Positions 484-53,433 are shown, counted from the stretch's first letter. The stretch is 55,044 bases of DNA from an uncultured Methanosarcinales archaeon (GCA_964359785.1 CAYHWL010000002.1:1-55044), one strand, 5' to 3'. Notes: generated by a model not told the origin, from the letters alone. Numbers and translations are program-made.

Positions 484-738
484 GGTTTGAATTTTCTTGT
501 CTAAAGTGAAGTTTCTTAGTACTTGTCCAACGGTGCGGCATAACATCTCGGTTTACGCATACTTGCGTGTATTTCTGCATTACACGCAGATTTTAAAATA
601 GTGTAAATAACTGTTTTACAGTGTTTTAAATATTTTGTTACGTTTTTCACCACTTGCGTGTATTTTTTTTATAGTTTGTAAATTGGCTTTATCTCTTCAA
701 ATAAATTTAAAATTCAATACAGTACATGTAATGTTTAA

Positions 739-1545
739 TTAATCCACCTTTGTAAAATAAGATTCAGCAGTAGGCAACCACTCTTGTATTCTGCCAATAC
801 GAGTATCGTGGCTGGGGTGTGTGCTTAAAAATTCTGGCACAGAACCACCACCTCCTGTACTTTTCATTCGTTCCCAAAAAGGAATAGCTTCTTTTGGCTC
901 ATAACCAGCCATTGCCATAAATACCATTCCAAGTTTATCTGCTTCACTTTCTTGGTTTCTACCAAAAGCTAAAATCCCTACTCCTGCTCCTATTCCATAA
1001 GCACTCAAAAATAAAGCTTGTGTTTCTTGTGGTTTGTCTTTCATGTAAACTGCTATGGCAGCACCTCCTGCAGCAGCTAATATTCCCTGACTCATGCGTT
1101 CGTTTCCATGTCGTGCTATGGCGTGTGCAATTTCATGTCCCATTACTACTGCTAATCCTGCATCGGATTGTGTTACTGGTAAAATTCCTTTATAAACCAC
1201 CACTTTTCCACCAGGCATACACCAAGCATTCACCACATCTTGGTTGACCAAATTAAATTCCCATTTGTAATTTTTAACTCTATTAGATTGTCCTTCATTT
1301 TTTAAATAACTTTCTACAGCGTGGGCAATACGATTACCTACTCGTTTAACTTCTTTGGTTTGTTCTATCTGCTCCGACATAGGCGGATTTTCAGTTAAAA
1401 AACTTTTATATTGCACCAAACTCATACTCATTAACTCACTTTCTGGTACTAATGTTACTTGTCTTCTACCTGAAATAGGAACTTTTGCACAAGCGATTAT
1501 GATAAGTGTTATTAATACTAGGAAGGATGGTTTTATATATTTCAT
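739..1545 (-). CDS. M48 family zinc metallopeptidase, lipoprotein
   Basis: HEIAH zinc motif (VVMGHEIAHAIARHGNERM). Starting at ATG 1545 gives a lipoprotein-type signal MKYIKPSFLVLITLIIIAC. The track ORF extends to a GTG at 1581. Confidence 0.85.
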   Translation of the reverse strand: MKYIKPSFLVLITLIIIACAKVPISGRRQVTLVPESELMSMSLVQYKSFLTENPPMSEQIEQTKEVKRVGNRIAHAVESYLKNEGQSNRVKNYKWEFNLVNQDVVNAWCMPGGKVVVYKGILPVTQSDAGLAVVMGHEIAHAIARHGNERMSQGILAAAGGAAIAVYMKDKPQETQALFLSAYGIGAGVGILAFGRNQESEADKLGMVFMAMAGYEPKEAIPFWERMKSTGGGGSVPEFLSTHPSHDTRIGRIQEWLPTAESYFTKVD

Positions 1546-40300: not shown

Positions 40301-40580
40301 CTATGTAAATAGTTTTTACTGCACCATCTGCTAACCCGTCTTCTGTGGTATAGTTGATAAATTCTTTTCCATCAAATCGGGATAAGCCACTTGCTGTTCC
40401 TAACCAGATGTATCCATTGTTATCTTGTACGATGGAATAAACACTGGATTGTGCCAAACCTTCTTTTACACTGTAATTATCAAAGTGATAGTTTTGGCTA
40501 AAAGAAAGATGATTTGACAATAAAAAAATAACCGACAAAGTAAATAACTTGTCGGTTAATAGCATTTTATAAAACTTCAT
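37344..40580 (-). CDS. Sensor phosphatase: periplasmic two-component-regulator propeller/Y_Y_Y repeats, one TM helix, cytoplasmic PP2C/SpoIIE domain
   Basis: Repeated ...G.IW.GT..GL... propeller blades over about 700 aa. TM helix WFLILCGIILIILVILFV, then a coiled coil. SpoIIE motifs SGDFYW, AAVDCTGHGVPGAFMS and DDVIVIG. Confidence 0.85.
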   Translation of the reverse strand: MKFYKMLLTDKLFTLSVIFLLSNHLSFSQNYHFDNYSVKEGLAQSSVYSIVQDNNGYIWLGTASGLSRFDGKEFINYTTEDGLADGAVKTIYIDSAGILWLGHVDGGVSRMSARAGTDGKNNKIEIVLSMSADITSFAEDDEGNLWVSSFGDGVIKITDPYLATKKSISFKQYKGQEGLSDVVFQITKIQNGNIYFITDVGIKNYNYQKNSFSFYKVNNLPTYFQITYLYEAKNQDQWFGSYNGGLYHYNKASGDLKIYDVRDGLASNWVSTIYEDTKSNIWIGTWGGGVSIINNSKITTINKAKGLVDNNIRFISEDREGNVLLGTKENGLLIYKGSQFVSYGIQNGLINEQVWAILRDDKGQDWFGTNEGISVFKDSKLINSYSEAKGMPYQDVRFIKKDKNNDIWIGTWGGGVMQFNNRSNKFEMNFRVNSYMNQLLITALDVDKTNNLWVGTTDGLVYYEINNQLVDRLTQSNGLAGNEITTIFTDAKNVVWVGARGKGITKIVGSKISKIDLKEKITPTSIIEDKIGNLWIGTEGKGVIIFDGKKIIKEYNVNNGLLSDYISLLNMDEKGNIWIGTNKGLNKYDVHQNRFYSFSEKMGYIGIESKHNATYKDNEGNLWFGTIKGVVKLNIKDEKVNTLEPITQISQLRVNLEDRPMSDNLELNYKEKSIIFNYSSICLTDPNQVYYKVMLEGLEEDWRPVTQQTFVTYSPLPPGKYTIKVIACNNNGIWNSKPITYSFSIIPPLWQRPWFLILCGIILIILVILFVKMRERNLLKEKRILEEKVEERTAEVVKQSKEIERKNKDIIDSITYAKRIQDAILPSGEMFTKQLAQTFVLFRPKDIVSGDFYWLAQKNNKSLFAAVDCTGHGVPGAFMSIVGYNLLDKIVGEYGTTEPDKILNELNKGVANTLRQEVASDAIKDGMDIALCSFDKETNVLEYAGAYNPLYIISKNKLEVMNGETIKPNIIDNNGLMLYEIKADRFPIGYYSEGANSFSKHSFQLSKGDVIYLFSDGFADQFGGEKGKKFRYKQLKELLLSINDLSMEEQKIKLETALSNWMGDFEQIDDVIVIGSKL

Positions 40581-40589
40581 AAATTCTTA

Positions 40590-42929
40590 CTATTTCTTAA
40601 TAAAGAAAAACGTACCATTTTCATCTTCTAAACCGGCAATTTTACCAAACTTAGGTTTTTGGTTAGAGCCATCTTTTGCCACAGCAGTGTTAACTTTAGA
40701 AACAACGGTTTCTATGGCAATGCAAGAGTTAGGATTACTGGATAAGGTGTTGGCAAATGTTTTAGTAAATTGAGAATTGTCGGAAGCTAACTCATATCCT
40801 GCAGAAGAAAAAACTTGAGAAGACTTAAATTTAGTGGCTTGCCAATCGTTGCAACTTCTATCTTCGGGTGTTGATCGCATTGCCTGATAAAAAGAGGGTC
40901 CAGATTCGCAAGCATCAGTAACCACTAACGTATGGGTAATTAATTTTGAATACGATTGCATGCTCGCCTTTAAATTGTTGATGTTAAAATAAGTAAACTC
41001 ATCGTCTCTTTTGGCATCAATTGGAATCCAATAACCCGATTCGTTGATGAATTTTCCGTGACCTGCATACCAAACCAACAGGGAGTTGACTTGATTACTT
41101 TTTACTAAGTCTCTTAATTCGATTGAGAAAAACTTTTCTAATTGAGCTTTTGTCATGTCTTTTTTATGAACTACATTATGAATTTTATATTTAGCAAAAG
41201 CAGATTTCATCATGGTCACATCTTTTGTTGGTCCATCTAATGGAGCAAAAGATTTATAACTGGCGTTTTCAATAAAAATAATCCAAGTTTTACCCATTGG
41301 ATTATCTGCTAACAAAGCTATGTTTTCTCTATTGATGGTGTATTTCTTTTCTACTTTATTGCAATATTGGTCAACAGCAGTAATGGTGAAACCATCCTTA
41401 TTCTTAATAGTTATTGAAGCTGAAAATTTTGGATTGTTTTCATCTAACACAAAACTTGCTGTAGCTCCTTCTATCAATATGCTTTTAATAAAACTTTCGT
41501 CCTCAATTTTACCTTCTACATACAAAGTTGGGTCATCAGCATCTAAATAAACCATTCCATCATCCGAAGCTAATGGAGCCATTAGTTTAACGACTGGAGC
41601 GTTGATTTCAGTTTCTACAATTTTATACGTCCATGTTTCGGAGTTTTGATAAATATCAAATGCTGTTATGCTTAATTCTTTTAACTCTTGCATATTTATT
41701 TCTAACTCAAAAGTAGGATTTAACGTATCCTTATTAAACTTCGCATCTTGATTGTTTACCTTAATAAATTCGATTGCACTTTGATCTTTAATTTGACCTT
41801 TGATTGTGTACAACACTAAATTTTTTGAAACATTCACCACTCCTGCTTCTAATGAAACTGGGTCAATCATTACAATAGTTGGGTTATTGGTTTCTTTATT
41901 TAATTCATGCAATCTTTTTTTAGCTTCATCATACAATTGCATTGCTTTACCGTCATAAGGAGATAATTTTCGTAAAGCTTCATAATCTTTAATGGCAGAT
42001 TTAAAATCAGACAAGGCTTCATAAGCTTTTGCACGTTGATAGTAAACAAAATAATCATCGCTTTTAATAGCAATTCCTTTGGTGTAATCGGCAATTGCAT
42101 TTTGGAATTGTCCCAAATCTTCATACATTTTTCCTCTTAACAAATAGTATTCTAACAAATTGGGATGGTAAGAAATTATTTTAGAAATGTCGTCAACTGC
42201 TTTTTGAGGATTATGGTTGGTGGAATTAATTTCCGCTCTAACCATTAAGGCATGCACATTTTCTGGTTCTAATTCTAACGATTTATCTGCTGCTTCTATG
42301 GCTTTAGGGAAATCATTTAATTTCATGTTGACATGAGCCAATCCGATGTAGGCTCCAGCCATTTTTGGTGAATAAAATTTTGCTCTTCCAAAATTGTAAG
42401 CGGCTTCTTTATAAAGCATCATGCTATCTTGAGCCATTCCTAAGTTATAATAAGCTTCGCCAGTTTTAGTTTGAGTAACAGCAATTTCAGCAGTTTCTAC
42501 AGCGTTTTTAAATTGTTTGATAGCGATACATGAATATACTTTGTAAGAATAAGCTTCTGACAATTTTTTATCAAAATCTATCGCTAAATTTAAAGCAGCC
42601 AAAGCATCTTCAAACTTTCCAAATTTATAAAAAGCCCTTCCTAAATTTAAATGGTATTCTCCCTCTTTTGGTTTAACGGTAATTGCTTTTTTGTAGTCAA
42701 TAATGGCTTTTTCAAAATCATTAGTTGCCTCGTAGGATAAACCTCTTAGCGATAAAGCTCTATCATGGTCATTTTTTATTTCTAACACTTTAGTAAATTG
42801 TTCAATGGCAGCAGCGTAATCTTTATTGGTATAATGATTTTCACCATTTTTAAAATTTTGAAAGTACGCTTGGGAGAAAATACTTCCATTTAGAACAATG
42901 AATAGGGATAAGATTAGTAACTTTTTCAT
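40590..42929 (-). CDS. Secreted TPR-repeat protein with a C-terminal caspase-like (C14) domain
   Basis: Signal MKKLLILSLFIVLNGSIFSQ and about 8 TPR units (AIEQFTKVLEIKNDHDRAL...). The caspase His/Cys dyad context is intact: LLVWYAGHGKF and TLVVTDACESGPSF. Confidence 0.8.
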   Translation of the reverse strand: MKKLLILSLFIVLNGSIFSQAYFQNFKNGENHYTNKDYAAAIEQFTKVLEIKNDHDRALSLRGLSYEATNDFEKAIIDYKKAITVKPKEGEYHLNLGRAFYKFGKFEDALAALNLAIDFDKKLSEAYSYKVYSCIAIKQFKNAVETAEIAVTQTKTGEAYYNLGMAQDSMMLYKEAAYNFGRAKFYSPKMAGAYIGLAHVNMKLNDFPKAIEAADKSLELEPENVHALMVRAEINSTNHNPQKAVDDISKIISYHPNLLEYYLLRGKMYEDLGQFQNAIADYTKGIAIKSDDYFVYYQRAKAYEALSDFKSAIKDYEALRKLSPYDGKAMQLYDEAKKRLHELNKETNNPTIVMIDPVSLEAGVVNVSKNLVLYTIKGQIKDQSAIEFIKVNNQDAKFNKDTLNPTFELEINMQELKELSITAFDIYQNSETWTYKIVETEINAPVVKLMAPLASDDGMVYLDADDPTLYVEGKIEDESFIKSILIEGATASFVLDENNPKFSASITIKNKDGFTITAVDQYCNKVEKKYTINRENIALLADNPMGKTWIIFIENASYKSFAPLDGPTKDVTMMKSAFAKYKIHNVVHKKDMTKAQLEKFFSIELRDLVKSNQVNSLLVWYAGHGKFINESGYWIPIDAKRDDEFTYFNINNLKASMQSYSKLITHTLVVTDACESGPSFYQAMRSTPEDRSCNDWQATKFKSSQVFSSAGYELASDNSQFTKTFANTLSSNPNSCIAIETVVSKVNTAVAKDGSNQKPKFGKIAGLEDENGTFFFIKK

Positions 42930-43276
42930 ATTTTATATTTTATATAAATAACTCATTATCAGTCAATCGATAAAATTAAGAAATATTTCGATGACTAGTT
43001 ATTTTTATACCCACAAAAGTTTATTTTTTTCAACAAAAAAATGAATTAAACGAGCCTGTTTCATCAGCAATTTTAGTAAATTCGCTTTCTTAAAACGGTT
43101 GAAGTTGTTAAAAAAAGATAAAATAAAAATCTTCGTTGTTGCTATTTTGGTAGTGTTATTAATCACTTCTTACATTATTGTTGGAAAAGATTCTGTGGTC
43201 ATGAAATATGTGAGTGGTTTTTGTTTACTAGCTTGGATAGCTACAATGGTTATTACTAATAAAAAATACAAATAAG

Positions 43277-43579
43277 ATGTTTGGAAATATGTTTAATAAA
43301 AATATGATGGAAAAGATGCGGGTGCAAATGGAGGAAATAAAAATAAAACTAAATAACATTAGTGTGCTTGGTGCTACCGATAACATTAAAGTTGTTGCCA
43401 ACGGAAATCGTTTATTAACTAGCGTTGAAATTGATGCTGATTTTTTTAAAACTGCCAACAAAAAACAAGTAGAAGAATTAATTGTGATTGCAGCTAACCG
43501 AGCATTAGAACAAGCCGAAAGGGTTGAAAAAAGTGAAATGAGTCATGCTGCAATGGGAATGCTACCTAGTTTAGGGTAA
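43277..43579 (+). CDS. ybaB: YbaB/EbfC family nucleoid-associated protein
   Basis: 100 aa: MFGNMFNKNMMEKMRVQMEEIK...VKVVANGNRLLTSVEID...VEELIVIAANRALEQA. Confidence 0.85.
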   Translation: MFGNMFNKNMMEKMRVQMEEIKIKLNNISVLGATDNIKVVANGNRLLTSVEIDADFFKTANKKQVEELIVIAANRALEQAERVEKSEMSHAAMGMLPSLG

Positions 43580-43653
43580 ATTAATTTAGAGTTTAGAAGT
43601 CCCCGTTCACTTGTCCCGTTCATTTGTCCCCTATCCCTTTCCCTTGTCCCTTT
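43580..43653. repeat. C-tract-rich intergenic element (family F). Carries a G-quadruplex-type motif on the minus strand at 43628-43650
   Basis: gtCCCCgttcacttgtCCCgttcatttgtCCCCtatCCCtttCCCttgtCCCtttc fills the whole gap between two convergent genes. The minus strand reads GGGACAAGGGAAAGGGATAGGGG. Confidence 0.7.
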
Positions 43654-44784
43654 CTACTTAACAGCAACCGATTCATAATTAATAACAGGGTTAGCGTACA
43701 TCTGCAAAAACAATTGTCTTGCTTTTTCGTTACCCGAAAAATTAGCTAATTTTTTGTTCATGTAATCAATAAATTGCTGTTTGCTTTCGGGAGTATATTT
43801 GGCAGCATATTTATTTGAATTGTTTAATAAATCATAAGCTACATAGTTAGAATTCCAAAGTCGATAATTGGTATAAATTTCTCTATCTATCACTTCAGCA
43901 ATATTTTTTAGCAATTCATTTTTGTTGGTGATGTGACTAAATTTTTTTATCTCCTCATTAATAGGAATGCCAAATTGAACGTGCACATGTCCCTTTTTAC
44001 CCTGCACTCCTAAAATCATACTAATTTCGTCTTCTCCTTCTTTTTTTACATATTCTTTTCCCTCTGATTTATTGAGTAGCTCAGGAATTTTTAATGCATC
44101 GCAAGGATCTAATTCATAGGAAATACTAACAGGAGTAATGTTTAAACTTATTAAATGATTTAATAAATTATCGTTAATGGATAATCCAAGCATTTTTAAT
44201 ACCCCAGGATTGGTTTTATCACAGCCATCTTTTGCTCTTCCTTCTCTTTGGGCAATCCAAATGGATTGTTTTTTATCTTTTAGCGTGTGATTAATATAGG
44301 TAGAGAGGTATTTTGATGCTTCTAAAATCTCTTGTTTAGGAATATTTCGTTTAACAATAAAACTCTTATTAATTCGAACCAAATCCTTAATCCATGGTTT
44401 TGCTAACAAGTTGCTTCCTATAGCTATTTCACAAGTATCGTAATCGTTAATATTTAAACAAAAATTAACCAGTGCTGAGTCGGAAACAATATCTCTATGA
44501 TTAGAGATTAATACATAGGGAGTGTGCTTATCTAAGCGTTGAAAACCGTCATAAGTAAATCCTTCTGATGAAGAGTTAATTAAACTTTGTATTATTCGAC
44601 AAACCATTTTGCTTTGAAACTCTCGAATGGTATGAAATGAAAGTAATATTTCTTTAATTTCTGTCGGAGATAATTCAGGTAAATATAGCTGAATAGCTTT
44701 CATCAATTGGTCAACTTCTACCAACTTTTTAATTACCGATTGGTATTCAATGTCGTAATATGGTCTTATATCGTCGAAATCCAA
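43654..44784 (-). CDS. Glycerolipid acyltransferase (PlsC/GPAT-like, HX4D)
   Basis: NHRDIVSDSAL (HX4D) and AQREGRAKDG motifs. TTG start according to the track. Confidence 0.75.
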   Translation of the reverse strand: MDFDDIRPYYDIEYQSVIKKLVEVDQLMKAIQLYLPELSPTEIKEILLSFHTIREFQSKMVCRIIQSLINSSSEGFTYDGFQRLDKHTPYVLISNHRDIVSDSALVNFCLNINDYDTCEIAIGSNLLAKPWIKDLVRINKSFIVKRNIPKQEILEASKYLSTYINHTLKDKKQSIWIAQREGRAKDGCDKTNPGVLKMLGLSINDNLLNHLISLNITPVSISYELDPCDALKIPELLNKSEGKEYVKKEGEDEISMILGVQGKKGHVHVQFGIPINEEIKKFSHITNKNELLKNIAEVIDREIYTNYRLWNSNYVAYDLLNNSNKYAAKYTPESKQQFIDYMNKKLANFSGNEKARQLFLQMYANPVINYESVAVK

Positions 44785-44816
44785 ATTTTGTTTTTTTGTT
44801 CAAAAATAGAAAAAAA

Positions 44817-46040
44817 TTAAAACTGAACTTCTACAGTTATTTTTTCTTTATTATTTCTTAATATGGTAACGGTTGTTTTATCTCCTTTTTTAAATTGACT
44901 TAAACTTTTCACGTAATCCATCATCGTTTTAATGGGTATATCACCCATTACCGTTACCACATCTCCTTTTTGAATTCCTGCCAATTGAGCGGGTTGATTT
45001 TCTTTTACACCATCAATTCTCATCCCTTCCCCTTCAAACATATAATCTGGAATAACTCCTAAAGTTACTGAATATTTAGGGGCTTTTTCACTCTCCTCAT
45101 CCTTGGTTTTAGTAAATGCTAATTTATCTGAACCATCTAAATCTGAAATAACTACATCTATTAAATTAATGATGGAAGCCATTCCCTCCACATTTACTTT
45201 ATCCGCATCGTCGGTGGGTTTGTGGTAATCGTCGTGCTGACCAGTAAAAAAATGAAGTACAGGAATATCCTGTAAATAAAACGACATGTGATCGGATGGA
45301 CCTACTCCACTTTCTTTTTTAATTAAATGAAATTTTCCTGCTATGTTTTTATCTAACTCCTCGTTCCAAACTGGAGAAGTTCCTGTTCCATAAACCAATA
45401 ATTTCATGTCAGGTGCTAATCTTCCAACCATATCTAAATTAATCATGTAGTTAATGGTGGAGAGTTCGATAGTTGGGTGTTTTACAAACCAACCAGAACC
45501 CCATAAGCCTTTTTCTTCACCAGAGAATGCAATAAAAAGGTAATTGTTGCCTTTATTTTTTTCTTTTAGAATTCTTGCCAATTGAATGATAGATGCAACT
45601 CCACTTGCATTATCATCAGCACCATTATGAATAGAATCGTTACCAGTGTAAAGCGAACCTTCGTCGCCAAAACCTAAATGGTCGTAATGTGCTCCAATAA
45701 CTATCGTTTTTGTTGCATTGTTATCGATATAACCAATAATGTTTCTACCAGTTATTGCTTTGGTGGTATCTACTTTTACTCGTGAATGTGGACTATATTT
45801 TGGTTTTACCGAGAACTCTTGTAAATATCCATTTTCGCCTTTAGGTAGCAACCCCAACTCATAAAACTTTCCCATAATATAACCCGCAGCCAATAATTCG
45901 CCTTTTGTTCCAGTGTTTCTTCCTTCTAAAACATCGCTCGCTAAAAAGGTAACATCTTTTTTAAGTTCGTTATTAACATTGATTTGGGAGGCTACTATTC
46001 CTGCATATCCAAGTAGTATAAAAGCAACTATAATTTTCAT
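44817..46040 (-). CDS. M28 family aminopeptidase with a C-terminal PDZ domain
   Basis: Zinc ligand motifs HYDHLG, GADDNASGVASI and FSGEEKGLWGS. PDZ domain GMRIDGVKENQPAQLAGIQKGDVV. Signal from ATG 46040. Confidence 0.85.
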   Translation of the reverse strand: MKIIVAFILLGYAGIVASQINVNNELKKDVTFLASDVLEGRNTGTKGELLAAGYIMGKFYELGLLPKGENGYLQEFSVKPKYSPHSRVKVDTTKAITGRNIIGYIDNNATKTIVIGAHYDHLGFGDEGSLYTGNDSIHNGADDNASGVASIIQLARILKEKNKGNNYLFIAFSGEEKGLWGSGWFVKHPTIELSTINYMINLDMVGRLAPDMKLLVYGTGTSPVWNEELDKNIAGKFHLIKKESGVGPSDHMSFYLQDIPVLHFFTGQHDDYHKPTDDADKVNVEGMASIINLIDVVISDLDGSDKLAFTKTKDEESEKAPKYSVTLGVIPDYMFEGEGMRIDGVKENQPAQLAGIQKGDVVTVMGDIPIKTMMDYVKSLSQFKKGDKTTVTILRNNKEKITVEVQF

Positions 46041-46139
46041 TCTTATTATTTTTTGTTTGCCCAAAATTACTTTTATTTTTTTAGAAAAATTTATAGTGTA
46101 AACCTTAATTCTTAATCAAGAATAAATACTTTTGTCCCC

Positions 46140-47255
46140 ATGAAAAAAATAATATTTACAATTGTTACCACTTCCCTTATTATTGCTTGCAATTCGAATG
46201 AGGAAAAAATAGCTGAACAACCAAAAGTTGACCAAACTTCTGGTGCCACCAAAAAATCGGCTATTCATTATCCAGAAGAAAAACATTTAAAAAATGTGAA
46301 ACAAATTACTTTTGGTGGCGATAATGCTGAAGCATACTTTAGTTTTGATAATCAACAGTTGGTCGTGCAAATTAAAAATGAAGCTTGGGGAATTGCTTGT
46401 GACCAAATATTTTTATTGGATGTTGATTCTACCTACAAACACAGCCGTCCAAAAATGATAAGTACTGGCAAAGGAAAAACAACCTGTTCCTACTTTTTAA
46501 AAGGCGATACTACATTTGTTTATGCCAGCACACACTTAGCTGATGCAAATTGTCCTTCAACACCCGAAAAAAGAGCTGACGGAAAATATGTGTGGCCTAT
46601 TTATGAAAGTTTCGACATTTTTGTTGCCGATTTAAATGGTAAAATCTTAAAGCAATTAACCAACACGCCCGGTTATGATGCAGAACCAACCGTTTCGCCA
46701 AAAGGTGATAAAATAGTTTTTACCTCCATCCGTTCTGGTGATTTAGAACTTTTTACCATGAATATTGATGGTTCTGAAGTGAAACAATTAACAAGTGGTT
46801 TAGGTTATGATGGTGGAGCTTTTTTTTCACCCAATGGCGAAAAAATTATTTTTAGAGCTTCTCGTCCAAAAACTGACGAAGAAATTAAAAATTACAAAAA
46901 ATTATTGGCAGAAGGTTTGGTACAACCTACCGAAATGGAATTATTTACTTGCAATGTGGATGGAAGCGACCTCAAACAACTTACCAACTTAGGTGGTGCC
47001 AATTGGGCTCCTTTCTTTCATCCTTCTGGCAAAAAAATACTTTTTTCGTCCAATCATACTTCTAAAAAAGGATATCCTTTTAATTTGTTTTTAATTAACT
47101 TGGATGGTTCTGGATTAGAACAAGTAACCTATGATGGTGTTTTTGATGCTTTTCCGATGTTTAGCAGCGATGGTAAAAAATTGGTTTTTAGCAGCAACCG
47201 AAACAATGGCGGCAACCACGATACCAACTTGTTTATTGCCGATTGGGAAGATTGA
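46140..47255 (+). CDS. PD40/TolB-like beta-propeller lipoprotein
   Basis: Lipobox TSLIIACNS and repeated PD40 motifs (DAEPTVSPKGDKIVFTS, GGAFFSPNGEKIIFRAS, APFFHPSGKKILFSS, FPMFSSDGKKLVFSS). Confidence 0.85.
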   Translation: MKKIIFTIVTTSLIIACNSNEEKIAEQPKVDQTSGATKKSAIHYPEEKHLKNVKQITFGGDNAEAYFSFDNQQLVVQIKNEAWGIACDQIFLLDVDSTYKHSRPKMISTGKGKTTCSYFLKGDTTFVYASTHLADANCPSTPEKRADGKYVWPIYESFDIFVADLNGKILKQLTNTPGYDAEPTVSPKGDKIVFTSIRSGDLELFTMNIDGSEVKQLTSGLGYDGGAFFSPNGEKIIFRASRPKTDEEIKNYKKLLAEGLVQPTEMELFTCNVDGSDLKQLTNLGGANWAPFFHPSGKKILFSSNHTSKKGYPFNLFLINLDGSGLEQVTYDGVFDAFPMFSSDGKKLVFSSNRNNGGNHDTNLFIADWED

Positions 47256-47261
47256 TTTTTT
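47100..47261 (+). repeat. Left copy of a 162-bp direct repeat (the functional 3' end of the PD40 gene plus 6 nt)
   Basis: Hand alignment with 49317-49478 gives 148 of 162 identical positions. Eleven of the 14 differences are synonymous third-position changes. Confidence 0.9.
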
Positions 47262-47414
47262 GACTATTCGATACTTGTTTTTATATCAATACCCCTCTTA
47301 AAACAATTCTAATAAAATCTGTTTTCTGCTATTTTTTTACTTTTTTGAAGTTTGTGCTACGATTACTGCTGTCATAGGCTGTCGTTCTTGTCTGTCGTGT
47401 CGTTGGCGCTTTGG

Positions 47415-47579
47415 CTATTGTGTCGGCCTATTCTTTTTAAAGTTCTCTGCTTGTTCAACTATTTCTACATATACTTCATCAGGCTTACGAGTAATCGAAA
47501 TACCTAAGTGATGGGGAAATCCTTCTTGCCCCAACAATTCGGTAAACGATTGTTCTAAACTTGCTTCTGTAAACTTCAT
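47415..47579 (-). pseudogene. hsdR: 5' fragment of a type I restriction enzyme R subunit gene (hsdR); only about 40-50 N-terminal codons remain
   Basis: Hand translation gives MKFTEASLEQSFTELLGQEGFPHHLGISITRKPDEV..., which matches the conserved HsdR N-terminus (MxFxExxLExxxxxxLxxxGY). The frame then runs into a stop after 54 codons. Its ATG overlaps the AbiEii stop as ATGA. Confidence 0.6.
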
Positions 47580-48532
47580 TCAATTCTTTTTATTAATTCT
47601 TCAAAGCATTTCGCTACATCATTTTCATCAGGAATTGGTCTATATGCTAAAGCGGATAGTTCAGTTTGATATTTTTCTGTTAATTGTTTCCAGATGGTTG
47701 AAAAATCATTTACCAAGGGATATTCAGCAATCAATTTTTTTTGCCAACCTTTTGGCTTTTCAAACATTTCTCTATCGTGTTGCAGAATGGTATCAAATTG
47801 TTTTTTAAACGAATCGGATGCTACAAATTCAATACACTCAGGATTTTTCATCAAGTAATACAAATCATAAAAGTGTCTTATTTTTTCGGAGATACTTTCA
47901 ACAGTATTTTCCTTAAATGAAAATCGAATTAACGATACCATCTTTTCCAATAGCGTTTGTTCTTTGCTCAATACGTTCACTTCAAAGGATTGGAGATTGT
48001 ATTCTTCAATGTATTTTTCATTGCTTGTTTGCATCAAAAAGTCAAACACCATACTCTGAATGGTAAGTCGTTGATAAGGGAAAGGATTAGCAAACGAGTT
48101 TATTTCAACAATGAGTTTGTTATTTGCATTGCCTTTTTCAGTTGTAACATATTCAAAAACAGATTTTCTGAATCTTGAACCTTTACTTGTTACACCTTCC
48201 ATTTGCACTTCGGTTAAATCAGGTGTTATTTCTTTTTCAATAGTTCGGATGATGGTTTTAATCTCATTACCTGTTTTACCCTTGTCGTTTATGATGGCAA
48301 TATCTACATCCTCCGAAAATCAATCTATCAGATTATATCCTTTTGATAGCGATGTGCCTCCTTTAAAAACAGATTCATCAACATATTTACTTTTCGCCAA
48401 ACGATTCAACACCAATGTTATCCAGTAATCTTTTTCTACAAATTCCAACTTAATATCTAAGTGTTGCGATGCAGATCTCAGAGTGCTGGAAAATAATTTT
48501 ATGTCGTGGTGCAGCCTCATAATATATTCCAT
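47576..48532 (-). pseudogene. AbiEii/AbiGii-family nucleotidyltransferase toxin, interrupted by one in-frame TGA (complement of 48320-48322)
   Basis: Track ORFs 48320..48532 and 47576..48208 are in the same frame. Reading through gives ...EKDYWITLVLNRLAKSKYVDESVFKGGTSLSKGYNLID*FSEDVDIAIINDKGK.... The family motif is GGT.L...Y.LI.RFSEDxD, so the stop replaces the expected Arg. Confidence 0.8.
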
Positions 48533-49257
48533 TTTTCGGTGGTGGATATTGCTTTCGCTGTACCTGTTAGTTTATATTTAGTAATTGGATTCAATGATTT
48601 GAAAAGTGACTCTGTTAAATTACTTTTTTGCAACTGCTCTAACAAAGCACCTAATAAAGCCCTTGTAGCAGGCGGATATTTTAATACCAAGCGAACCAAG
48701 GTATTGATTTCTTTGTCCGTAAAGTTTTTGATAATAGCTAAAAACCGCTTACAGGATGCTTCTATACCTGCATCAGGTATTTTTTTGATGTAGCGAATGG
48801 CATCCAGCAACTGCAACAAAGGAATATTCTCTTTGGTGATGGTGTTTTTTTGCTTTACAAAAGCAATCGTATAGCGTTCTCTTTTAAAATTGGGGCGAAC
48901 CTGATTTTTGCCAATTTGTATGGTATTGCTTACCTGTGTGGTTAAACCCAATTGATTGTAAATGCTGTAACCTGTGAGATAACCTGTTATTTTTCCATTT
49001 TCTTCCAGCAAGTCTTTTACTGTTTGTGCCTGATTGGGTTGAAGGTTGCCAAAGGGCGTATTTTCGGGTTTGTAATATTTGCCTTTGGATAGTTTGGCAA
49101 TTTTGCCCGATTCCACCATACGGTTCAATGCTTTTATTACCGCTTCTTTCTTGTTCACCTCTGTAGTAAAGTCGGCATAGGTGAATACATAACCCTTAGG
49201 GAGCCTATCTATGGTAAATGCTATGTATTCAACTGTTTTCATTCTATTTATTACCAT
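48517..49257 (-). CDS. AbiEi-family (type IV TA) antitoxin / wHTH regulator
   Basis: The N-terminus ...LPKGYVFTYADF...AVIKALNRMVESGKIAKLSKGKYYKP fits the AbiEi_4 winged-helix pattern. The gene overlaps the AbiEii start by 16 nt. An alternative ATG lies at 49242. Confidence 0.75.
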   Translation of the reverse strand: MVINRMKTVEYIAFTIDRLPKGYVFTYADFTTEVNKKEAVIKALNRMVESGKIAKLSKGKYYKPENTPFGNLQPNQAQTVKDLLEENGKITGYLTGYSIYNQLGLTTQVSNTIQIGKNQVRPNFKRERYTIAFVKQKNTITKENIPLLQLLDAIRYIKKIPDAGIEASCKRFLAIIKNFTDKEINTLVRLVLKYPPATRALLGALLEQLQKSNLTESLFKSLNPITKYKLTGTAKAISTTEKWNIL

Positions 49258-49273
49258 GCAAAGATAGCATATT

Positions 49274-49303
49274 TGTCCAGTTTATTAGCAAAAAAACTGG
49301 ACA
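49274..49303. promoter_or_regulatory. Perfect 10-bp inverted repeat (TGTCCAGTTT-N10-AAACTGGACA) upstream of abiEi; putative autoregulatory operator
   Basis: Read directly. It lies 17-46 nt upstream of ATG 49257. AbiEi antitoxins are known to autorepress through inverted repeats in their own promoters. Confidence 0.55.
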
Positions 49304-49316
49304 TTTTGAAATTTGA

Positions 49317-49478
49317 TTGGATGGTACAGGTTTAGAGCAAGTAACTTACGATGGTGTTTTTGATGCTTTTCCTATGTTTAGTAGTGATGGTAAAAAGTTA
49401 GTTTTTAGCAGCAACCGAAACAATGGTGGTAACCACGATACCAACTTGTTTATTGCCGATTGGGTAGATTGATTTTTT
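49317..49478 (+). pseudogene. Orphan right copy of the PD40 gene 3' end (51 codons + stop + 6 nt) with no start codon
   Basis: Encodes LDGTGLEQVTYDGVFDAFPMFSSDGKKLVFSSNRNNGGNHDTNLFIADWVD*. An in-frame TGA lies immediately upstream (49314-49316). Confidence 0.85.
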
Positions 49479-49597
49479 AACCCATCCATTTTTCTCTTTT
49501 GTTTCTTATCCTCAATGTTGCTTGATAGATAATACCGATTATACATTCAATATAGTCCACTTTCTGTGTACTATTTTCATGTTATATCGGCATTAAC

Positions 49598-49645
49598 CAT
49601 TGTAAAATTATAAAACAGTTTGAACTGTTTTATAATTACAATTGG
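49598..49645. repeat. Long AT-rich near-perfect palindrome (arms of about 20 bp)
   Basis: ccattgtaaaattataaaacagtt-tg-aactgttttataattacaattgg. The inner 14 bp of each arm pair perfectly, with one indel further out. Confidence 0.8.
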
Positions 49646-49791: not shown

Positions 49792-49845
49792 ACAAAATCA
49801 GGGGTATAAATAAGTTATGCGGCATGTTAAGACAACAGACAAACA

Positions 49846-50382
49846 ATGGGACTATTTGACAAAATAAAAACTAAGACTGACGAGTACGCAAGAGTAATCG
49901 AATGGACACCACAATGGGACACTGGAGCACCAATGCCTCAAGTGTTTTCTAACGGACACAAGACTTTTTTAATCTATTTAATCAATGAGCCTGACCCGAA
50001 CTGGGACGGAACTTATGTGAATATGATTGACAATACAAGCGAAACAACATATCCATTAGCTCTGGTTGAATTTAGCGGACACACTTTTCGTTTTGGAATA
50101 GCAAATGACGAAGTGTTTAGTGGACTTCCTCTTTGGGACAAAGGACTTGAAGGTTATACAGCACACATCATCGAGAACTCGACTTGGATAACTGAATTAA
50201 AAAATATTAACAAAGTTCATCCATATTACAACGAGGACAGGTGGAAGGAAAAAAAACACTTCACGCTATTGTTTCATGACGAAATATTTGAAGTGATTGC
50301 AACAGACTATAAAATTGAAACATTCAAAACGACCTTTGGACAATTGGCGACAGAAGTAGTGAAACGAATGAATGGAAAATAA
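49846..50382 (+). CDS. Orphan 178-aa cytoplasmic protein, function not recognised
   Basis: Clean ORF with no signal peptide. It is visibly richer in G+C than the surrounding genome. It lies in the island between the AbiE remnant and the PHP-ATPase gene. Confidence 0.7.
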   Translation: MGLFDKIKTKTDEYARVIEWTPQWDTGAPMPQVFSNGHKTFLIYLINEPDPNWDGTYVNMIDNTSETTYPLALVEFSGHTFRFGIANDEVFSGLPLWDKGLEGYTAHIIENSTWITELKNINKVHPYYNEDRWKEKKHFTLLFHDEIFEVIATDYKIETFKTTFGQLATEVVKRMNGK

Positions 50383-50547
50383 GCACGACTGCATAACACG
50401 GGTTTTGCGTTAGTGGGCGGACAGTGCGAATAGAAACAATTGAGCAATTGTCTCGTCCTAAAATAAGTTTACACAAAACAACCGACCCGAAGTAGTACCA
50501 AGGGTAAATTTATATTCATGTAAGTACGAAAAGTTTACAACAAATAA

Positions 50548-50565
50548 ATCCGTCAGCTGACGGAT
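50548..50565. promoter_or_regulatory. Perfect 18-bp palindrome ATCCGTCAGCTGACGGAT just upstream of the promoter-like box of the PHP-ATPase gene
   Basis: Read directly. Its centre lies about 40 nt upstream of the -7 box at 50593-50600. Confidence 0.5.
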
Positions 50566-50592
50566 GATGATTTGTAGTAACTGTTTTTTAGT

Positions 50593-50600
50593 TATATTTG
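50593..50600 (+). promoter_or_regulatory. Bacteroidetes-type -7 box TAtaTTTG
   Basis: Matches TAnnTTTG. It lies 80 nt upstream of ATG 50680 and is followed by the same TTTGAAATAAATA 13-mer seen at 49728-49740. Confidence 0.45.
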
Positions 50601-50679
50601 AAATAAATAACACTAAAAGGTGTACATATAAACAAGTTAATCGGCAATATTGTAGGACGACACAACAAAGAAAAGTAGA

Positions 50680-52824
50680 ATGAAAATAGACATTCATACA
50701 CATACGAAAAAGATAAAACAGGGCGACTCCGAAAATCGCAATATTGACGTTGACAGATTTGCCGAAATCATCAAAGAAACTGATGTAAAAATTTTAGCAA
50801 TTACGAATCACAATCATTTTGACTACAAACAATACAAAGACTTCAAAGAAAGTGTTGACGGAGTTTGCCAAATTTGGCCAGGTGTAGAATTTAATATACT
50901 TGAAGAGGAACGTAGAGCACATTTAATTACAATAGTGAATCCTAAAAATGCAGCCGCTTTTGGCAAAAAAGTAAATGAGGTTATTGGCTCTACTTCCGCA
51001 GACACTTTTACAATTAGTATTGATGATGTTGTGAATAAGTTTGCAGGGTTTGACACAATTTTCATTGTCCACTATCAATCAAAAAAGCCCAATTTAATTG
51101 ACCAAGACATTGATAAACTTTTGAAAAAGGTTTCTAACTCAAAAAGAGTTTTAAAGGAAGCTTCTAATTCTATTTCGGCAGGCATCTATATCAATCACGG
51201 ACACAACTCTATCCACGGTTCTGACGTTCAAAATTGGAGCGACTATGTAAGTAATTTCAAAAATTTACCTGAATTAAGATTGCCAGTTGAAAGCTTTGAG
51301 CAGTTTTGTTTGTTGTTAGACAAAGACGACACAACAATCAATACCATTCTTGACAAAAAAACTAAAGAAACAATTCAGATAAATCCGTTCAATAGTGCGG
51401 CAGAAATAATGGACATTGATATATACAATGACATAAATATCCTATTTGGCTCAAAGGGAACAGGAAAAACAGACATTTTAAAGGCACTTTCAAAACATTA
51501 CAATGGCAAAGGTTTCAAAACAAAAGTCTATGAATCCAATTCTAAAAAGATAGATGATGTTTTTGACCTTAAAGGCTCACAACTAAAAATTGATATTGAA
51601 CAATTGGGTATTGACAGTTGCTCCACCGAACTGACTTCTCTAAGAAATGCGACAGAAAAAGAAGTAACGAGTTTGTCAAAATATTTGCTTTACTATTCTG
51701 CTGATGCTACAAATAAAATATCCAAATACATCAAGGTTGACAAATTCACGCCTCTTGATGAGAAATCACCTAAAAGAAGTTTTGAAGACATAAAGAATAA
51801 TTTGAAAATATTTCAGGAGTTCAAAGAATATTATGCCGTTGATGCAAAACTAAAAGAGATTATTGGAGAAGAACTTTTAACCGAATTAGACAGTGTTGTA
51901 AATAAAATTTTAGACAAGATAAATACAGAATCTGGAAAACGATTTACGAACTTCAAAAGCATTAGTTTCTTTAATAAATTAGTGAAACTATTTGTTAAAG
52001 AAATTTCAAAAAAAACAGGACAACCCGAAAAGCCTACAAAAACTGGTTTTTCAGAATATGCAACCAATAGGATTGGCATTGAAAAAGATGTCAAGAAAAT
52101 TCTTGAAAATATCTCTAAAAAAATTGCACCAGTTATTGAAGAGGCTGGCAATTTAGGTGACAAAGGAAAACTGTATTGTCAAATAAATTTACTTCTACAA
52201 AACGGAAAGGTTTCGGACGTTAATTACAAGCACATTAACAGCACCACAAAAATTCCGCAAAAGTCGGTAGCTGCTAAAATAGAATTGATTTCAAAACACA
52301 TTTACACCAATACACTGTTTGAAAAAATTGATGATCTTAAAAAAGTTGAAAGTTCAGATACCGTTTCATCAATTAATGATTTATTGCTTTTTTATAAACA
52401 CTTTACTTTAGATAGTGAGTTTTATACCCCCTCAAATGGCGAATCTTCAATGGTTCTCTTGCACAATGAACTAATGAAAGACGAAGAAATTTATCTCATT
52501 GACGAACCCGAAAAAAGTTTAGGAAATGACTACATAAGCGAAGTAATTGTTCCCTTGATAAAAGAAAAAGCCAAAAGCGGCAAAAGAGTAATTATTGCAA
52601 CACACGATGCAAATATTGCGGTTAGAACATTGCCTTACAATTCCATTTATCGTGAACACGACATAAATGGTTATTACACATATTCAGGCAATCCATTTTC
52701 TAACAACTTAATTTGTAGTTCAGGTAAAAAACCAAATTTGGATTGGAAGCTAATTAGTATGAAAACTTTAGAAGGCGGCAAAGACGCCTTCGGTGAAAGA
52801 GGAAAAATATATGGCAACACATAA
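50680..52824 (+). CDS. PHP-domain phosphoesterase fused to an ABC/SMC-type (AAA_21/23-like) ATPase; candidate defence effector
   Basis: N-terminal PHP motifs MKIDIHTHT, AITNHNHF, WPGVEF and FIVHY. C-terminal half has Walker A LFGSKGTGKTDILKAL, a signature-like PSNGESSM, Walker B EIYLIDEPEKSLG and H-loop IIATHDANI. Confidence 0.8.
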   Translation: MKIDIHTHTKKIKQGDSENRNIDVDRFAEIIKETDVKILAITNHNHFDYKQYKDFKESVDGVCQIWPGVEFNILEEERRAHLITIVNPKNAAAFGKKVNEVIGSTSADTFTISIDDVVNKFAGFDTIFIVHYQSKKPNLIDQDIDKLLKKVSNSKRVLKEASNSISAGIYINHGHNSIHGSDVQNWSDYVSNFKNLPELRLPVESFEQFCLLLDKDDTTINTILDKKTKETIQINPFNSAAEIMDIDIYNDINILFGSKGTGKTDILKALSKHYNGKGFKTKVYESNSKKIDDVFDLKGSQLKIDIEQLGIDSCSTELTSLRNATEKEVTSLSKYLLYYSADATNKISKYIKVDKFTPLDEKSPKRSFEDIKNNLKIFQEFKEYYAVDAKLKEIIGEELLTELDSVVNKILDKINTESGKRFTNFKSISFFNKLVKLFVKEISKKTGQPEKPTKTGFSEYATNRIGIEKDVKKILENISKKIAPVIEEAGNLGDKGKLYCQINLLLQNGKVSDVNYKHINSTTKIPQKSVAAKIELISKHIYTNTLFEKIDDLKKVESSDTVSSINDLLLFYKHFTLDSEFYTPSNGESSMVLLHNELMKDEEIYLIDEPEKSLGNDYISEVIVPLIKEKAKSGKRVIIATHDANIAVRTLPYNSIYREHDINGYYTYSGNPFSNNLICSSGKKPNLDWKLISMKTLEGGKDAFGERGKIYGNT

Positions 52825-53107
52825 AGCAACAATTGAGAGAAAAGAAAAAAGTGCAACTTTAAAACTTGCAATTGACAAAACCGTGTTAGACATTGTTCTG
52901 ACCGAAGACAAACCGAATGATGTAAAGTCGGTATTTAATAAACTTTTGGAATTACTCAAAAGTGGAGTATTTGACTTTACTTTATCTGACGAAAAGGAAG
53001 ACTTGTATCATCACATTTGTAAAGAATACATTACTCAATTGAACGCAGAACTTAAAAGCACATTTCAAGAATTAAAGGACAACGGACTATTAAAAACGAA
53101 AAAATAA
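52811..53107 (+). CDS. 98-aa helical acidic/basic protein, translationally coupled to the PHP-ATPase gene
   Basis: ATG 52811 lies inside the last 14 nt of the upstream gene (ATGGCAACACATAA). The protein begins MATHKATIERKEKSATLKLAIDKTVLDIVLTEDKPNDV... and matches no motif I recognise. The track ORF starts earlier, at 52793. Confidence 0.6.
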   Translation: MATHKATIERKEKSATLKLAIDKTVLDIVLTEDKPNDVKSVFNKLLELLKSGVFDFTLSDEKEDLYHHICKEYITQLNAELKSTFQELKDNGLLKTKK

Positions 53108-53433
53108 ATACTGCTGCTAACACAGGTAACTGTTGCACAACTTCCAAAAAAGGTACTATTTTAGTAAAAATGGCTTTATTTTAGCTGTTTTAAGAGCGGC
53201 TAAATTTCGATTAACAAAAATTTACTTCAAAATTTAATTAGCACCTCAAAAACTGAGAAGGGAGAAAAGCAGAGATATTTTGCTCTTTTTTACCATCCTT
53301 ACAGAATAAACTACCAATAGATAATTTTATTTTTCTACAATTTTTGTTATTTCTATTTTTACTTAGAAAAAAAAGATTAATATTGATTTCATCTTAAATA
53401 TTTATACATTACAAAAAAATAAACTAAAAGACT

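Follow-up and report, generated by a model that had tools for sequence, protein, structure and literature searches.

A duplicated PD40 gene end around a restriction-modification operon remnant: a recombination scar at a variable locus of groundwater Flavobacteriales

A repeated gene end and the remnant between its copies

We analyzed a stretch of 55,044 nucleotides from a contig of a metagenome-assembled genome (MAG) (GCA_964359785.1 CAYHWL010000002.1:1-55044; hereafter, the window, with positions counted from its first letter). The window carries an intact gene for a PD40/TolB-like beta-propeller lipoprotein, which is the final conserved core gene ahead of a variable region, and the 3΄ end of this gene is present twice (Table 1). 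The left copy belongs to the functional gene. The right copy, the end of a second allele, has an in-frame TGA (49314-49316) directly on its 5΄ side. The 2055 bp between the copies are a piece of a type I restriction-modification (R-M) operon with abiE genes.

Table 1. Features at the 3΄ side of the PD40 gene in the window (ORF, open reading frame)
Feature	Position	Strand	Basis
PD40/TolB-like beta-propeller lipoprotein gene, 371 aa, intact	46140-47255	+	Pfam PD40, E=1e-35
Left copy: final 51 codons, stop codon and TTTTTT of the functional PD40 gene	47100-47261	+	
Spacer of 153 bp, PD40 stop to end of hsdR remnant; the insert has its left boundary at some point in it	47262-47414		
hsdR remnant: first 36 codons fused in frame to last 18 (54-codon ORF; ~3 kb deleted)	47415-47579	-	
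hsdR deletion junction at shared GATGAAGT; D-E-V codons at both breakpoints	47473-47480	-	
abiEii toxin pseudogene, 318 codons collinear with an intact 314-aa homologue	47576-48532	-	Alignment to L098
abiEi antitoxin/regulator gene (DUF6088), intact	48517-49257	-	PADLOC AbiEi, E=1e-58
Conserved inverted repeat upstream of abiEi (GTCCAGTTT...AAACTGGAC)	49275-49302		
Illegitimate junction: 10-nt TTGGATGGTA in PD40 coding sequence, 9/10 in the upstream sequence of the L098 cassette (TTGTATGGTA)	49317-49326		
Right copy: stranded 3΄ end of a second PD40 allele, no gene body upstream	49317-49478	+	
Flank F, ~54 nt after the right copy, homologous to the post-stop sequence of L095 and collinear with the right copy	49479-49532	+	
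Gene for a 178-aa protein, first gene of the cargo on the right-copy side	49846-50382	+	
Gene for a 714-aa PHP + ABC/AAA ATPase (N-terminal PHP-like metallohydrolase, split ATPase), with an overlapping 104-aa ORF after it	50680-53107	+	

We compared the two copies by machine alignment (offset 2217) and found that 148 of 162 positions are identical (91.4%), with a BLAST E-value of ~1e-57, far beyond chance. The likeness sets in abruptly at 47100/49317, where both copies open with the same 9 bases (TTGGATGGT), and ends at 47261/49478, after the stop codon and TTTTTT. Eleven of the 14 nucleotide differences are single synonymous third-position changes, and the others lie in two non-synonymous codons, TCT>ACA (S>T, 2 nt) and GAA>GTA (E>V, second position). 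The Nei-Gojobori method counts 12 synonymous and 2 non-synonymous changes and gives a synonymous divergence (dS) of 0.59, a non-synonymous divergence (dN) of 0.016 and a dN/dS ratio of 0.028; the probability of so many synonymous changes under neutrality is 1.5e-7 (binomial). A preliminary description of this DNA had reported the 162-bp repeat with its 14 differences, the 11 synonymous third-position changes with two non-synonymous codons, and the in-frame TGA before the right copy, all of which the machine comparison reproduced exactly. It had also named machine alignment and dN/dS beforehand as checks, and both returned a mainly synonymous divergence.

A direct repeat that flanks an insert might be expected from a target-site or tandem duplication that arose in place and then diverged. 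However, 12 of the 14 changes are synonymous even though the right copy is not translatable within any gene, and the dS value is far too large for a recent event. Moreover, because the left copy shares derived states with the related lineages L095 and L082 (see below), the split between the copies predates these lineages, yet neither carries a second copy. Duplication in place is effectively excluded, with hardly any residual chance.

Since the sequence is a contig from a MAG, and mosaicism between strains is plain in this population, we also considered an assembly chimera that fused two strain variants. However, both junctions recur in contigs of a separate European Nucleotide Archive assembly from the same groundwater well (Hainich H52): L081 (44750-47628) spans the left one and L096 (48704-50603) the right one, and either contig is 99.9% identical to the window with one single-nucleotide polymorphism. 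A chimera is therefore unlikely to account for either junction. Furthermore, only 3+6 bases are common to both sources at the junction, and there is no long shared k-mer; such a stretch is too short for a join in a k-mer graph to be plausible. An assembly origin is thus highly improbable and, in effect, excluded.

The DNA between the copies was identified from related cassettes, which in the contexts retrieved often lie within type I R-M operons of the order hsdM, hsdS, AAA ATPase, abiEi, abiEii, hsdR (L098, L099 and L116). Given this order, the spacer is what remains of such an operon at its hsdR end, with all that lay upstream of the abiEi promoter lost. The order abiEi-abiEii-hsdR with ATGA overlaps is the same in L098, L116 and L117, at 85-92% protein identity; in contrast to these cassettes, the window has a nonsense codon in the toxin gene, only 54 codons of hsdR, and no hsdM, hsdS or ATPase gene. 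The abiEii gene is broken by a single in-frame TGA (48320-48322, codon 71), at a position that encodes arginine in L098 and just before the SEDVD motif, and PADLOC recognizes two AbiEii halves (48320-48532 and 47576-48208, both on the minus strand, with E=3e-48 and 1e-23, respectively). The hsdR remnant has no family match in Pfam, PADLOC or NCBIfam, and was identified by direct alignment to neighbouring hsdR genes. Alignment places its first 36 residues at the N-termini of the L098 and L099 HsdR proteins, which are encoded directly after abiEii, and its final 18 at the C-terminal end of the L099 HsdR (YVEI.EQAENFKKN). Judged from these alignments, the remnant is the product of a microhomology-mediated in-frame deletion of ~3 kb.

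The AbiE system is incomplete, with AbiEi intact and the AbiEii toxin interrupted before its catalytic motif, and so is the type I R-M system, of which only the two HsdR ends are left. Because of the AbiEii nonsense codon, the reduction of HsdR and the absence of hsdM, hsdS and the ATPase gene, the cassette is non-functional, although AbiEi is possibly expressed. The preliminary description had listed abiEi, a dead abiEii and an hsdR stub between the copies; the first two stand, the death of abiEii being traced to one nonsense codon, and the stub is refined to an internal deletion that fused both ends of hsdR.

The true start of abiEi is likely at 49242, which would give the 241 aa of its homologues. 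The inverted repeat upstream of it is kept in 7 of the 7 cassette relatives examined, and is probably the AbiEi operator, by analogy with the known autoregulation of AbiEi. We found 4500 AbiEi homologues at E<=1e-20; the best 120 of these are 84-92% identical, the listed ones are nearly all 241 aa long, and their hosts include Saprospiraceae, other Bacteroidota and a Parachlamydiaceae MAG. Such identity across families, together with the conserved operator repeat, implies that the cassette has spread widely by horizontal transfer, and very recently, in many cases as part of a type I R-M operon. The exact AbiEi sequence of the window, with either start codon, has no database record among those searched. 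The inserted cassette is foreign to the locus: it is absent from all PD40-linked loci, and it is found at 84-92% protein identity in Saprospiraceae, other Bacteroidota and Parachlamydiaceae. The 153 bp between the PD40 stop and the hsdR remnant match no locus other than the same-population contig L081.

The variable site and the two lineages of the gene end

The PD40 gene and its upstream genes (including an M28 peptidase gene) are syntenic in the relatives whose contigs extend that far. Nucleotide identity in the PD40 region is 96.3% for L095 (window positions 40545-47284), 89% for L082, 85% for the L085/L001 lineage, 80% for L083 and 76% for L002, a Vicingus MAG. In all of these relatives, the similarity on the left-copy side ends at, or a few bases from, the stop codon and TTTTTT. 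The cargo that follows the PD40 stop differs in each of the six related lineages: next to that of the window, we found a TmtA (Tiamat) gene in L095 (PADLOC E=7e-75), a gene for a protein sorted by the type IX secretion system (T9SS) on the opposite strand in L082, unknown and T9SS genes behind an IS5-like transposase fragment in L085, a gene for a 1869-aa protein in L083 and a 1012-aa ORF in L002. A second copy of the 162-nt segment is absent from L095, L082, L085, L083, L002 and L003, each of which has one match (L082 covers only ~0.4 kb downstream). The proteins encoded at 47.4-55 kb have no homologue in 97 related loci except in the same-population contig L081. In distant Bacteroidota, lepA is the usual gene downstream of PD40 (33 of 72 loci), but not in this clade.

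In L085-L094, the IS5-like transposase fragment, which contains the DUF772 N-terminal part (e.g. L085 11213-11589), comes first after the PD40 stop and is another sign of mobile DNA gathering at this position.

To the right, the tetranucleotide distance from the contig core is raised (z=2-3.7) in 2-kb windows at ~47-53 kb and takes core values again at ~52-53 kb, whereas GC content and skew yield no usable boundary between 40 and 55 kb. The right-hand core flank was not found before the contig ends at 55044. On these comparisons, the 3΄ side of PD40 in these groundwater Flavobacteriales is a site of variable cargo, defined from its left side only. This arrangement resembles defence hotspots beside core genes, where the same conserved flank runs to the stop codon and close relatives carry unrelated cargo: the window has the AbiE remnant and a PDC-M49A-like gene where L095, at 96% flank identity, has TmtA/Tiamat. 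However, the right conserved flank was not found here, and recognizable defence genes occur in just two of the six lineages, the window and L095, with T9SS or unknown genes elsewhere.

These results bear on several claims of the preliminary description. It had proposed an alignment of relatives as a check, and this alignment revealed a single copy and different downstream DNA in each lineage rather than a shared arrangement. Its proposal of a hotspot for swapping defence cargo holds in kind, since the cargo varies and L095 carries TmtA/Tiamat; as to frequency, the genomes are few and defence is limited to the two lineages. The accessory status that it assigned to positions from 47262 to ~53 kb fits both the absence of homologues from the 97 loci and the raised tetranucleotide distance, and of the two sliding-window analyses that it suggested for the right island boundary, the k-mer analysis pointed to one near 52-53 kb and the GC analysis gave none.

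We then compared each copy with the orthologous gene ends. The left copy is 96.3% identical to L095, 92.6% to L082 and 85.8% to L085, values in line with those for the remainder of the gene. For the right copy, identity to the left copy is 91.4%, and the values against L095, L082 and L085 are 92.6%, 89.5% and 90.1%, respectively. At three informative sites (47156, 47183 and 47213), the right copy has the outgroup, ancestral state, and the left copy, L095 and L082 have a common derived state. By these sites the left copy groups with L095 and L082 to the exclusion of the right copy, so the copies have their origins in separate lineages. The 51 residues encoded by the right copy are exactly those of the L095 C-terminus despite 12 nucleotide differences, all of which are synonymous. 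The claim that both copies had evolved as functional coding sequence in different lineages is therefore upheld by the dN/dS ratio, the peptide identity and the ancestral sites.

The sequence that follows the right copy points in the same direction. A local alignment of flank F with L095 scored higher than all shuffles (z=5.8; 0 of 1000 shuffles as high), and the BLAST match extends to 49532, whereas the sequence after the left copy has no such match to the post-stop sequence of L095. Because they are collinear with the L095 gene end, the right copy and flank F represent the end of a second, functional allele from an unsampled lineage.

The identity between the window and L095, its closest relative, is a mosaic, ranging from 86% to 100% in 200-nt blocks, and is evidence of frequent homologous exchange among diverged strains. 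By orthologue identity the right copy is the outlier; this is suggestive, and in view of the 162-nt length and of blocks at 86-100% not decisive, as to which copy is native. Along the aligned region (window 40545-47284, L095 3593-10358), identity is 98-100% over most of 40.7-43.3 kb and at 45.9-46.3 and 46.5-46.7 kb, 94-97% in most other blocks and 86% at 44503-44702, with a 51-column indel region at 43544-43702.

The junction at the right copy and its formation

The spacer is 87.7% identical to L098 over 1856 nt (47471-49326), an alignment that reaches 10 nt into the right copy. L098 has GAAATTTGATTGTATGGTAGTACC, after which comes the terminator hairpin of the ATPase gene that precedes abiEi there; PD40 has AATTAACTTGGATGGTACAGG and the window has GAAATTTGATTGGATGGTACAGG. 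The operon and the gene tail are thus joined inside TTGKATGGTA, where they match at 9 of 10 positions (chance, ~1e-4). The DNA that adjoins the right copy corresponds to the intergenic stretch separating the AAA ATPase gene from abiEi, and this stretch is internal to the operon in L098, L099 and L116. L098 is the sole relative close enough to be compared over the 15 nt beyond the AbiEi operator; the others diverge from ~49311. Read in this way, the junction bears the signature of an illegitimate, microhomology-mediated join and not of an attachment-site core, because such a core would be followed by element-specific sequence. The preliminary description had inferred fixation by homologous or illegitimate recombination, and the microhomology between spacer and right copy gives direct support to the latter.

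The simplest account, which we favour and consider fairly probable, is that two alleles of the variable locus were joined head to tail in a single event of homology-anchored illegitimate recombination. Allele 1 would have consisted of the functional PD40 gene (with the left copy) and part of a type I R-M operon that moves horizontally (abiEi-abiEii-hsdR), and allele 2 of the PD40 3΄ end of another lineage (the right copy), flank F and its own cargo, namely the 178-aa gene and the PDC-M49A-like ATPase gene. Incoming DNA from a related strain would have paired at PD40 and the core genes upstream of it, and its non-matching end would have been sealed at the 10-nt microhomology between the intergenic region upstream of abiEi and PD40 codons 321-324. 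The operon would thereby have lost its hsdM/hsdS half, and of the other allele's PD40 gene only 162 nt would have been kept, after which the cassette would have decayed through the abiEii nonsense codon and the microhomology deletion in hsdR. The operon is truncated exactly at the 49317-49326 junction, and hsdR, 1.8 kb away, holds another deletion made at a microhomology (GATGAAGT); both observations support this account.

A comparable process, homology-facilitated illegitimate recombination (HFIR), has been demonstrated experimentally: according to PMC6382021, which cites de Vries & Wackernagel 2002, Prudhomme 2002 and Meier & Wackernagel 2003, a foreign end is sealed at 3-10 bp of microhomology beside a homologous anchor. 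Such products, known from the naturally transformable Acinetobacter baylyi, Streptococcus pneumoniae and Pseudomonas stutzeri, have one homologous anchor side and one foreign side sealed by microhomology. At 9/10 over 10 nt, the junction of the window falls within this 3-10 bp range by comparison with one relative (L098), and it lies 162 nt inside the anchor gene. Unlike those products, the window holds a natural scar in an uncultured member of the Flavobacteriales, and the anchor sequence is duplicated over 162 nt rather than deleted. While the data show directly that the copies stem from two lineages, what the spacer is, that both junctions lie at microhomologies and that the site varies, we infer the HFIR route and the order of events.

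Several points weigh against this account. Documented HFIR usually deletes recipient DNA and does not leave a duplication. The microhomology was found by comparison with L098 only, the other relatives diverging from ~49311. On the left, the sequence runs without a break into core genes that are mosaic against L095, and no crossover point can be identified for this event; a later internal deletion, instead of import, could give the same junction. No parental allele was recovered, whether a full gene of the right-copy type with flank F and its cargo or a gene of the left-copy type with an intact operon. Finally, all of the direct structural evidence comes from the population of one groundwater well. 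With regard to such alleles, an exact-pattern scan of metagenome contigs of the Joint Genome Institute (JGI) found no match to the gene end GATTGGGWAGATTGATTTTTTRAC.

The anatomy of the locus is also close to that of icd, e14 and icdC in Escherichia coli K-12 (PMC13626634), and the main alternative is site-specific integration of the e14/phage 21 type, in which an island with a surrogate PD40 3΄ end at its attP site entered the gene, so that one copy would complete the gene and the other would be displaced, and later lost its integrase and most of its length. In both cases, a diverged direct repeat of the last ~55 codons of a gene brackets an insert, with a diverged 3΄-end duplicate at both ends of the insert and the gene intact. 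We measured the MG1655 icd/icdC repeat at 165 nt with 12 differences (92.7% identity), comprising nine synonymous and two non-synonymous codons, and a block of identity at its 5΄ edge; the window repeat has 162 nt, 14 differences and 2 non-synonymous codons, and its two copies likewise begin with 9 identical bases. The variation of downstream cargo in every relative would also be expected of an attB site.

However, e14 carries intE/xisE and defined att ends, whereas the insert in the window is 2 kb of a truncated R-M operon with a chance microhomology junction. There is no integrase or excisionase between the copies or at 49.5-55 kb, no ORF at 47.4-55 kb matches a recombinase family, and the listed downstream genes of L083, L085-L094 and L095 include no integrase. 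The right copy adjoins a point internal to the operon and not the terminus of an element, and the match to PD40 there is only 10 nt. In addition, the gene-proximal copy, which would be borne by the element in such a model, is as close to its orthologues as other parts of the gene are, and it is the distal copy that stands apart, a comparison over 162 nt in a recombining population and so not decisive. The window contains no third, displaced copy further right. We also found no tRNA genes or Rfam RNAs at 47.2-55 kb, and no convincing terminators or promoters near the junctions. An integration of this type is unlikely, and what chance we allow it lies mainly in a version in which the duplication was made by an integrase and later trimmed by deletion.

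A related possibility is that the PD40 3΄ end serves as the attachment site for unrecognized, integrase-less small defence islets that are mobilized in trans and pile up in tandem. Each islet could have a surrogate gene tail and the ~54-nt flank F as its left end; the right copy, flank F and the cargo could then be one islet, and the L095 gene end, its flank and Tiamat another. We regard this as very doubtful.

Insertion of a circular DNA with a PD40 homologue and cargo by a single Campbell-type crossover, which would give two full PD40 genes, followed by a microhomology deletion that reached from upstream of abiEi into the second gene and left only its last 162 nt, would account equally for the allelic, selection-shaped divergence and for the microhomology junction, and deletions of this kind do occur in the segment, as in hsdR. 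However, this route calls for two events when one is enough, we saw no PD40 homologue on a plasmid or circular element, and no relative has two full copies. This origin is quite unlikely.

The present structure has a possible further fate. Recombination between repeats of the icd/icdC type would yield a chimeric yet functional gene (PMC13626634), and the two PD40 copies could now allow RecA-mediated loss of the spacer to form such a gene. Spacer-less chimeric PD40 proteins and the right-copy peptide have no database record among those searched, and no deletion allele was found.

Neighbouring cargo and implications

From end to end, the 714-aa ATPase fits the PADLOC candidate PDC-M49A (E=3e-28), and it matches the NCBIfam TrlF family weakly, at E=1.5e-16, which is below the family cut-off; it is probably, as a candidate, the live defence cargo of the locus. 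The 178-aa protein has no match in Pfam, PDB, PHROG or PADLOC, and has 324 homologues that are up to 92% identical. Its gene occurs in 11 JGI contigs (L101-L111) at 72-91% nucleotide identity, with the homology confined to the gene and ~30 nt on each side (49814-50413). The neighbours there are unrelated, including DUF6000, HEAT-repeat and TPR-repeat proteins, in same-strand arrays of small genes that are reminiscent of immunity-gene arrays. In its distribution the gene behaves as a single-gene mobile module. We tried the protein as a probe for a parental allele with PD40, flank F and the 178-aa gene, and rejected it, since its homologues lie in unrelated contexts and the homology is limited to the gene.

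Two palindromes accompany this cargo: a near-perfect one of 46 nt (TTGTAAAATTATAAAACAGTTTGAACTGTTTTATAATTACAA; 49599-49642) lies between flank F and the 178-aa gene, and a looser one of ~100 nt (50508-50608) lies between the 178-aa and ATPase genes. They may be terminators or module boundaries. A 34-nt inverted repeat (47292-47325 and 53166-53199; 74% complementary, with an 11-nt exact core, CTCTTAAAACA) has one arm just after the left copy and the other just after the last cargo ORF, near the return to core composition; it may be a chance occurrence in AT-rich DNA.

The core segment upstream of PD40 has a second variable boundary, which lies leftwards of ~40545, left of a gene for a 779-aa TPR/caspase-like protein. 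Beyond it, the window has a 1078-aa ORF, L095 (1-3592) has genes with CHU_C/T9SS tails and L085 (1-4660) has several genes with T9SS tails. Elsewhere, window positions 630-743, which are intergenic or at a gene edge, match L095 10454-10573, on the opposite strand upstream of tmtA, over 122 nt (73%, E=1e-9); this stretch may be a small repeated element.

Taken as a whole, the repeat and its insert amount to a familiar type of recombination scar, at a variable locus that in part bears defence genes, and reveal no new mechanism or element. The interpretation given in the preliminary description is supported and refined. It also calls for caution, as a diverged 3΄-end repeat like that of e14 and icd is by itself no proof of site-specific integration. 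On the favoured reading, its value is that of a clean natural example, from uncultured groundwater Flavobacteriales, of defence cargo being swapped beside a core gene without a dedicated recombinase: pairing via a conserved gene, combined with a microhomology join, leaves behind a gene fragment that is datable and shaped by selection. The fragment in the right copy is, moreover, a marker for a second, unsampled allele of the locus.

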